Below, one piece after another: positions 1 to 806 of a stretch of DNA of 806 bases (within the stretch, counting starts at the first letter, position 1; every line of letters begins with the position of its first letter). The notes below the pieces were generated by a model, which was not told the origin of the DNA, did no database searches, and was given only the letters and a program-made list of their open reading frames with translations. The position numbers and the translations under genes were made by a program. The DNA comes from Escherichia coli (GTDB taxonomy: Bacteria > Pseudomonadota > Gammaproteobacteria > Enterobacterales > Enterobacteriaceae): assembly GCF_003334385.1 (NCBI RefSeq), contig NZ_QOWN01000144.1; one strand, written 5' to 3'.

Positions 1-806
1 CATCCGATTCGGCATAAAAGGCTGCCTGGTCCTTAAGGCGTTCGCTCAGATACTGCGCGTTCTGTGCCCGTGCCTGTCTGTAAAAATCCTCACTGATATC
101 CCCGGTCTGATACTGAGACTGAAGGTCCGCATCCTTCTGGCGGAAGCTGTCGCGGATCTGCTGCAACTCCCGCATGCGTTCCCTGGCTCGTTCTCCCTGC
201 CCGTACCCCAGCAGTTCGGCTTCATTTGATGCACGCGCAGCCACATTATCATTCTTCAGGGTCTCTTCCCGGGATCGCAACTGTTCCCGGATTTTTTGCT
301 GGTCAATCAGGGCCGCGTTACGCAGCAGTTCCTGCTTCTGCATCTCCGTCAGGGTTTTCAGTTCGCCCTGCGCAGTCTGGTACTTCAGCTTCGCCAGCTC
401 TGTATTCTGACCCGCCAGTGCCAGTTGCTCTTTCTGCTGCTTCAGTAGCCGGGAAAAACTGTCTTCCGCTTTTTCCGTCTCTGATTTTCCACCCCGGGAT
501 TTAGGTTTGTTCGCCTCGTTATTACGCCAGGCTTCCAGAGCATTACTGATATAACGCTGTCTCGCCTCCTGATACGAATCCCCCACAAAACCAAGGTCAT
601 CCGCCGCATACCCCAGCCGGGCACGCTCTTTTTCCTCCCCCTTCAGTCGGGACAGGGCCAGCTCACGCTCTGTTTTTGTCAGGGCACTCTGCTGTTTATC
701 ATCCAGGGTGGCCTGTGGCAGCCGTAACGGTACATTCACCAGTCCCTGACGCTGCTGAAGCAGTTCATTCCCCAGCCCCAGCAGACGGTTGAATTCCGTA
801 TGCTGA
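1..806 (-). CDS. Partial CDS, internal fragment with both ends outside the window; probable phage tail length tape measure protein (lambda gpH-like), central helical/coiled-coil region
   Basis: Seen in sequence: the minus-strand frame with complete codons at 805..2 runs 268 sense codons with no stop, checked codon by codon. The same register on the plus strand contains TGA, TAG and TAA. Codon choice is enterobacterial-like: Gln almost always CAG (CAA twice), Leu mostly CTG. Composition is Q/E/L/R/A/K-rich with spaced hydrophobic residues, typical of long alpha-helical coiled coils. Inference: the product call rests on composition and on loose resemblance, recalled rather than searched, between the stretch ...NKPKSRGGKSETEKAEDSFSRLLKQQKEQLALAG... 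and the ...KKPKQSS...RQEDSAHAALLTLQAELRTLEKHAG... region of lambda gpH. No enzymatic motif is visible. Confidence that this is a real CDS is about 0.9; confidence in the tape-measure product is about 0.5. Confidence 0.7.

Follow-up and report, generated by a model that had tools for sequence, protein, structure and literature searches.

Introduction

Tape measure proteins, including gpH of phage lambda, form an extended and mostly helical oligomer that is kept soluble by the G and G-T chaperones. In phage lambda, 32 rings of gpV wrap the gpH oligomer, which sets the length of the tube, whereas the C-terminus of gpH forms a trimeric (three-helix) coiled coil in the tip, where it is held by a gpI trimer (PMC10721106). 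During infection, lambda gpH is presumed to leave the tube and to assist passage of the DNA across the envelope (PMC10721106). That the length of the tape measure protein governs the length of the tail is firmly documented. For mycobacteriophage TM4, a deletion of 114 aa in the tape measure protein shortened the tail by ~20 nm, compared with a predicted 17 nm (PMC1796659).

Here, we analysed a stretch of 806 nucleotides of Escherichia coli DNA (contig NZ_QOWN01000144.1 of assembly GCF_003334385.1), referred to in its entirety as the window. An earlier examination of its letters, which we call the sequence-only reading, had proposed a probable phage tail tape measure protein, and this proposal is borne out by PHROG, Pfam, and NCBIfam profiles and by 100% amino acid identity to an annotated protein. 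The window almost certainly derives from the interior of the tail tape measure gene (the analogue of lambda gene H) of a lambdoid E. coli prophage with a long non-contractile tail, whose group counts many Stx1- and Stx2-converting phages among its members. The gene is a familiar one, with annotations in thousands of E. coli genomes and dozens of phage records.

Results

An open reading frame spanning the window

Six-frame translation identified one frame (minus strand frame 1, running from base 805 down to base 2) of 268 codons with no stop; the remaining five frames contain 4, 5, 10, 11, and 16 stops. A fully open frame arose in one of 5000 mononucleotide shuffles of the window, and an open frame on the minus strand in none of the 5000. 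The frame is open at both ends of the window, with its start and stop codons both lying outside, and it is omitted by the ORF lister. Positions 2–805 on the minus strand correspond to an internal fragment of a tail tape measure protein gene, as all 268 residues of the translation are identical to residues 598–865 of WP_174147749.1 (1088 aa, E. coli SCU-104), with 100% identity at the amino acid and 99.8% at the nucleotide level. This location, which is central to C-proximal in what we refer to below as the full-length relative, agrees with the earlier assignment of the window to the central part of a tape measure protein.

The composition of the 268-aa translation is dominated by six residues (Q, E, K, R, L, and A), which together account for 62.7% of it, and includes no Cys, one Trp, and one His. 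The 15 Gly and three Pro residues mostly cluster at residues 10–30, 56–75, 101–106, and 200–204. Hydrophobic residues show a period-3.5 signal that was matched by 1% of shuffles; this periodicity fits a coiled-coil-like helix and provides modest evidence for one. A Pfam scan identified no catalytic domain in either the fragment or the full-length relative, in line with the lack of catalytic motifs that had been noted from the letters alone.

We also searched the window for a second functional element of any kind (antisense ORF, small RNA, promoter, or terminator), the presence of which we consider very improbable. What points to such an element are two plus-strand ORFs of 78 and 92 aa, a 13-nt inverted repeat whose arms are separated by 301 nt, and a 16-nt imperfect direct repeat. 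However, an Rfam scan of both strands gave no match at E ≤ 1, no promoter-like or terminator-like sites were found on either strand of the window, and the two repeats, which are the only inverted and direct pairs in the window, do not exceed what chance predicts for two-copy families. With A at just 134 of its 806 bases, the plus strand has few stop codons and can be expected to carry long antisense ORFs by chance alone; the mean longest open stretch in shuffles was 122 aa. We dismissed the 78- and 92-aa ORFs as antisense artefacts attributable to this A-poor strand.

Occurrence among phages and E. coli genomes

Megablast searches identified the window in 92 of 50,697 phage records, with at least 80% of its length covered in 91 of them. 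The best matches, at 99.4% nucleotide identity, were Escherichia phage Lys8385Vzw and three vB_EcoS phages, and most of the other records correspond to Stx1a-, Stx2a-, Stx2c-, or Stx2-converting phages with 90 to 99% identity. Altogether, 68 Stx-phage records share 97 to 99% identity with the window. Wherever the matched feature is annotated in the phage records, it is a tail tape measure protein.

Among complete E. coli genomes, matches were present in 1,280 of 5,426, with a best identity of 99.8%, and each of the 15 E. coli matches listed carries the annotation “phage tail tape measure protein”. These genomes contain 2,984 matching places, 2,978 of which are chromosomal, as anticipated by the sequence-only reading when it placed the window in a prophage or phage tail module. 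An exact DNA match was found neither in the 50,697 phage records nor in the 5,426 complete E. coli genomes, which places the source genome outside both collections. The closest DNA record, the prophage of E. coli SCU-104 (L001), differs from the window at two positions (99.8% identity), and both differences are synonymous. Lys8385Vzw (L002) differs at five positions, of which four are synonymous, the remaining one replacing Gly106 of the window with Arg in the phage.

Individual E. coli genomes carry up to eight copies of the tape measure segment, with four to six copies in several O26 and other STEC strains. As long repeats of nearly identical sequence, these copies could support recombination between prophages that share a host genome.

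Domain architecture of the encoded fragment

The fragment matches several PHROG tape measure families, including phrog_339 (1.8e-62) and phrog_1716 (6.5e-62), as well as phrog_2854 and phrog_24. Its top PHROG match is phrog_19302 (7.6e-181), a profile of 356 positions that carries the label “unknown function”. Its members are evidently pieces of tape measure proteins or the products of split gene calls, so that the label points to incomplete annotation of the library and has no biological meaning.

Two further profiles define the layout of the fragment. The Pfam model Phage_HK97_TLTM (PF06120) matches residues 1–97 (window positions 515–805, minus strand) with its positions 195–292 of 295 (6.4e-20), which corresponds to the C-terminal end of an HK97-type tape measure domain. 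The NCBIfam model TIGR01541 (tape_meas_lam_C) matches residues 136–268 (positions 2–400, minus strand) with model positions 2–142 of 332 (3.2e-11), representing the first 142 positions of a lambda-type C-terminal tape measure domain. The score of the latter match, 43 bits, is below the cutoff of 104.75 because the window holds just 142 of the 332 model positions, and the window ends five residues short of the core of Pfam Tape_meas_lam_C (residues 870–941 of the full protein). On the basis of these matches, the window comprises the end of an HK97-type central domain, a short linker, and the first ~40% of a lambda-type C-terminal domain.

In the full-length relative, Pfam identified TMP_3 (PF20155) at residues 83–272, Phage_HK97_TLTM (PF06120) at 411–694, and Tape_meas_lam_C (PF09718) at 870–941. 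The entire PF06120 model is matched (1.1e-74), TIGR01541 scores 235.3 bits over residues 733–1051 (cutoff 104.75), and TIGR02675 (tape_meas_nterm) scores 80.6 bits against a cutoff of 21.35. These matches to curated profiles are those predicted for a siphovirus tail tape measure protein.

The combination of domain types raises the question of whether the gene is a recombination mosaic, in which a lambda-type C-terminal domain was fused to TMP_3 and HK97-type N-terminal and central parts. In that case, the linker (bases 482–511) would mark the junction and could serve as a favoured site of exchange among the many lambdoid prophages that reside together in pathogenic E. coli. We regard this scenario as rather doubtful; if true, it would mean that C-termini compatible with the tail tip are swappable onto different ruler shafts.

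Predicted structure

The fragment was modelled with AlphaFold2 in single-sequence mode, giving a model of moderate confidence (mean pLDDT 69.7), and secondary structure was assigned by DSSP. In this model, helices cover ~85% of the length and are localised to residues 2–23, 36–39, 44–70, 76–98, 109–233, and 239–266. The breaks between them, at residues 24–43, 71–75, 99–108, and 234–238, match three of the Gly/Pro clusters and Gly235, whereas the glycines at 200–204 are inside the single continuous helix 109–233 and are accompanied by no break. This long helix (window positions 107–481, minus strand) is predicted with block-mean pLDDT values that rise from 56 at its start to 94. The sequence-only reading had described a long Q/E/K/R/L/A-rich helical segment with a few Gly/Pro breaks, a description with which both the residue content and the model are consistent.

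The break at residues 99–108 corresponds to a non-helical linker rich in Gly, Pro, and Lys (ANKPKSRGGK; positions 482–511, minus strand), delineated by DSSP on the model, by the Gly/Pro positions, and by the domain boundaries. This linker separates the end of the HK97-type domain (residue 97) from the start of the lambda-type C-terminal domain (residue 136). Given the 1088-aa length of the relative and the helical model of the fragment, the protein is predicted to be long, extended, and predominantly alpha-helical.

Genomic context in close relatives

Because the flanking genes are absent from the window, genomic context was taken from the SCU-104 prophage (99.8% identity) and Lys8385Vzw (99.4%), and not from the source genome. 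In these relatives the genes are arranged on a single strand in the order V (major tail), G, T, tape measure, M, L, K, I, J, and Lom. Upstream of the tape measure gene, the SCU-104 prophage encodes the small and large terminase subunits, capsid, portal, connector, head closure, tail completion, major tail subunit, tail assembly chaperone, and T. Downstream, the tape measure gene is followed by a tail protein (gpM analogue), a porin gene, minor tail protein L, and a C40 peptidase (gpK analogue), and then by a tail assembly protein (gpI analogue), J, and an Ail/Lom family protein. The gene order of Lys8385Vzw is the same except that the porin gene is missing. In both relatives, the tape measure gene is thus positioned between the G/T chaperone genes and M, L, K, I, and J, and in the same orientation.

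We identified an A_AAA_AAG slippery heptamer, in phase with the zero frame and 7 nt upstream of the G stop codon, in both the SCU-104 prophage and Lys8385Vzw. In both, T occupies the -1 frame, which stays open from 25 nt ahead of the end of G up to the stop codon of T; as a control, the script used for this search recovered the G_GGA_AAG site of lambda. These features are those of a putative G/T chaperone pair expressed with a programmed -1 frameshift in the relatives. Since the gene occupies the minus strand of the window, the chaperone genes would be located past position 806 and those of the tip ahead of position 1. This is the order that had been forecast from the window, namely gpG/gpGT with their -1 frameshift beyond position 806 and analogues of gpM, L, K, I, and J before position 1, and the order in the two relatives agrees with it.

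The additional porin gene of the SCU-104 prophage (L001:14018–15181) is ompC-like, encodes 387 aa, and is located between the gpM and gpL analogues in the same orientation, a gene that the collinear Lys8385Vzw lacks. The M-porin-L arrangement was detected, at a coverage of at least 80%, in 92 of the 5,426 complete E. coli genomes. In the phage collection, just distant porin genes were found (73% identity; nmpC of P7 and ompD of JL22), none of them in the M-porin-L arrangement. The porin gene of the SCU-104 prophage looks like a cargo gene inserted inside the tail operon.

Two other regions of these relatives show irregular gene models. In the SCU-104 prophage the portal gene carries a frameshift annotation (L001:4473–7219), and in Lys8385Vzw it is represented by two separate CDS (L002:2154–4252); errors in sequencing or annotation, a genuine defect, or recoding could account for these gene models. 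The SCU-104 prophage also has tail fibre genes (L001:22043–23227) that are annotated as partial, with an N-terminal piece that has no C-terminus followed by a piece that has no N-terminus, suggesting a rearranged or decayed host-range region in this prophage.

The context and the database matches bear on two other readings of the window. According to the first, the window encodes part of a coiled-coil protein that does not come from a phage, such as one involved in conjugative transfer or chromosome segregation; this is the alternative that the sequence-only reading had itself set against its proposal. The composition of the window is generic for coiled coils, and weak sub-threshold Pfam matches link it to unrelated coiled-coil families (CdvA, 0.0096), as does a match to nucleoporin Nup58 at E = 0.45, the sole PDB match that phmmer returned for the fragment alone and a chance-level coiled coil. 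However, the significant profile matches are all to tape measure families, a 100% identical protein is encoded between tail chaperone and tail tip genes, and the segment is also present in 92 phage genome records. With phage records, PHROG profiles, context, and full identity all contradicting it, this reading was rejected as exceedingly improbable.

The second reading accepts a tape measure gene and places it in a decayed, non-inducible prophage remnant or a phage-derived tail-like element, whose protein no longer builds infectious tails. Many lambdoid prophages of EHEC strains are defective, some E. coli genomes accommodate as many as eight copies of the segment, and the closest relative of the window has a portal gene annotated as frameshifted and partial tail fibre genes, all of which would fit such a remnant. 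Nevertheless, the reading frame is intact across the whole window, the segment occurs in records deposited as complete phages, and the differences from the relatives are mostly synonymous (2/2 relative to the SCU-104 prophage and 4/5 relative to Lys8385Vzw), as expected from recent purifying selection or recent common ancestry. We therefore consider a remnant unlikely, while granting it some weight.

Discussion

The assignment of the window to the tail tape measure gene of a lambdoid prophage allows a role to be proposed for the encoded protein from its family membership. The major tail protein would polymerise around the tape measure oligomer and stop at the end of the ruler, so that tail length would scale with protein length. 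On infection, the tape measure protein would be expelled from the tube and may help the DNA to cross the cell envelope. The 268 residues encoded by the window probably belong to the ruler shaft and, at ~0.15 nm per residue, would account for ~40 nm of a shaft of ~160 nm.

The window is of little importance in itself and serves as a marker of the tail module of a lambdoid prophage from a lineage that includes Stx1- and Stx2-converting phages. Cargo such as genes of the Lom/Ail family, porin genes, and perhaps toxin genes may therefore be encoded within some 10 to 30 kb of it. The window does not allow the presence of stx to be deduced.

Comparison with lambda gpH (NP_040595.1; PDB 8iyk chain H) depends on the length of sequence that is compared. 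BLASTP of the fragment against gpH returned nothing significant (best E = 2.9), and phmmer against PDB chains did not retrieve gpH at E ≤ 10. The suggestion of the sequence-only reading that one stretch loosely parallels gpH was therefore not upheld, as the resemblance is not recognisable by eye, and the homology of the window translation to gpH, although real, is visible just through profiles or the full-length protein. Solved tape measure chains, with lambda gpH (8iyk_H) among them, are homologues of the full-length protein, and residues 751–1088 of the full-length relative align to gpH 496–850 (8iyk_H) with E = 1.3e-17. Because this alignment starts at residue 751, fragment residues ~154 to 268 fall in the region homologous to gpH.

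With respect to the named systems, the window protein shares with lambda gpH its role, its gene position (V, G, T, H, M, L, and K in lambda), and the TIGR01541 C-terminal domain family. In contrast, the full-length relative is longer than gpH (1088 versus 853 aa), its N-terminal and central regions belong to the TMP_3 and HK97 types and are not lambda-like, and the G/T slippery site is A_AAA_AAG in the relatives and G_GGA_AAG in lambda. Similarity to the tail length tape measure family of phage HK97 (PF06120) is established through the family profile and not through the HK97 protein itself; fragment residues 1–97 match the last 98 positions of this model, which covers just the first third of the window. 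The closest correspondence is with the tape measure genes of Stx-converting and related lambdoid phages and prophages, represented by Lys8385Vzw (QIW91686.1), Stx2-converting phage 1717, and SCU-104 (WP_174147749.1), which share 98 to 99.8% DNA identity with the window and have the same reading frame and position within the gene.
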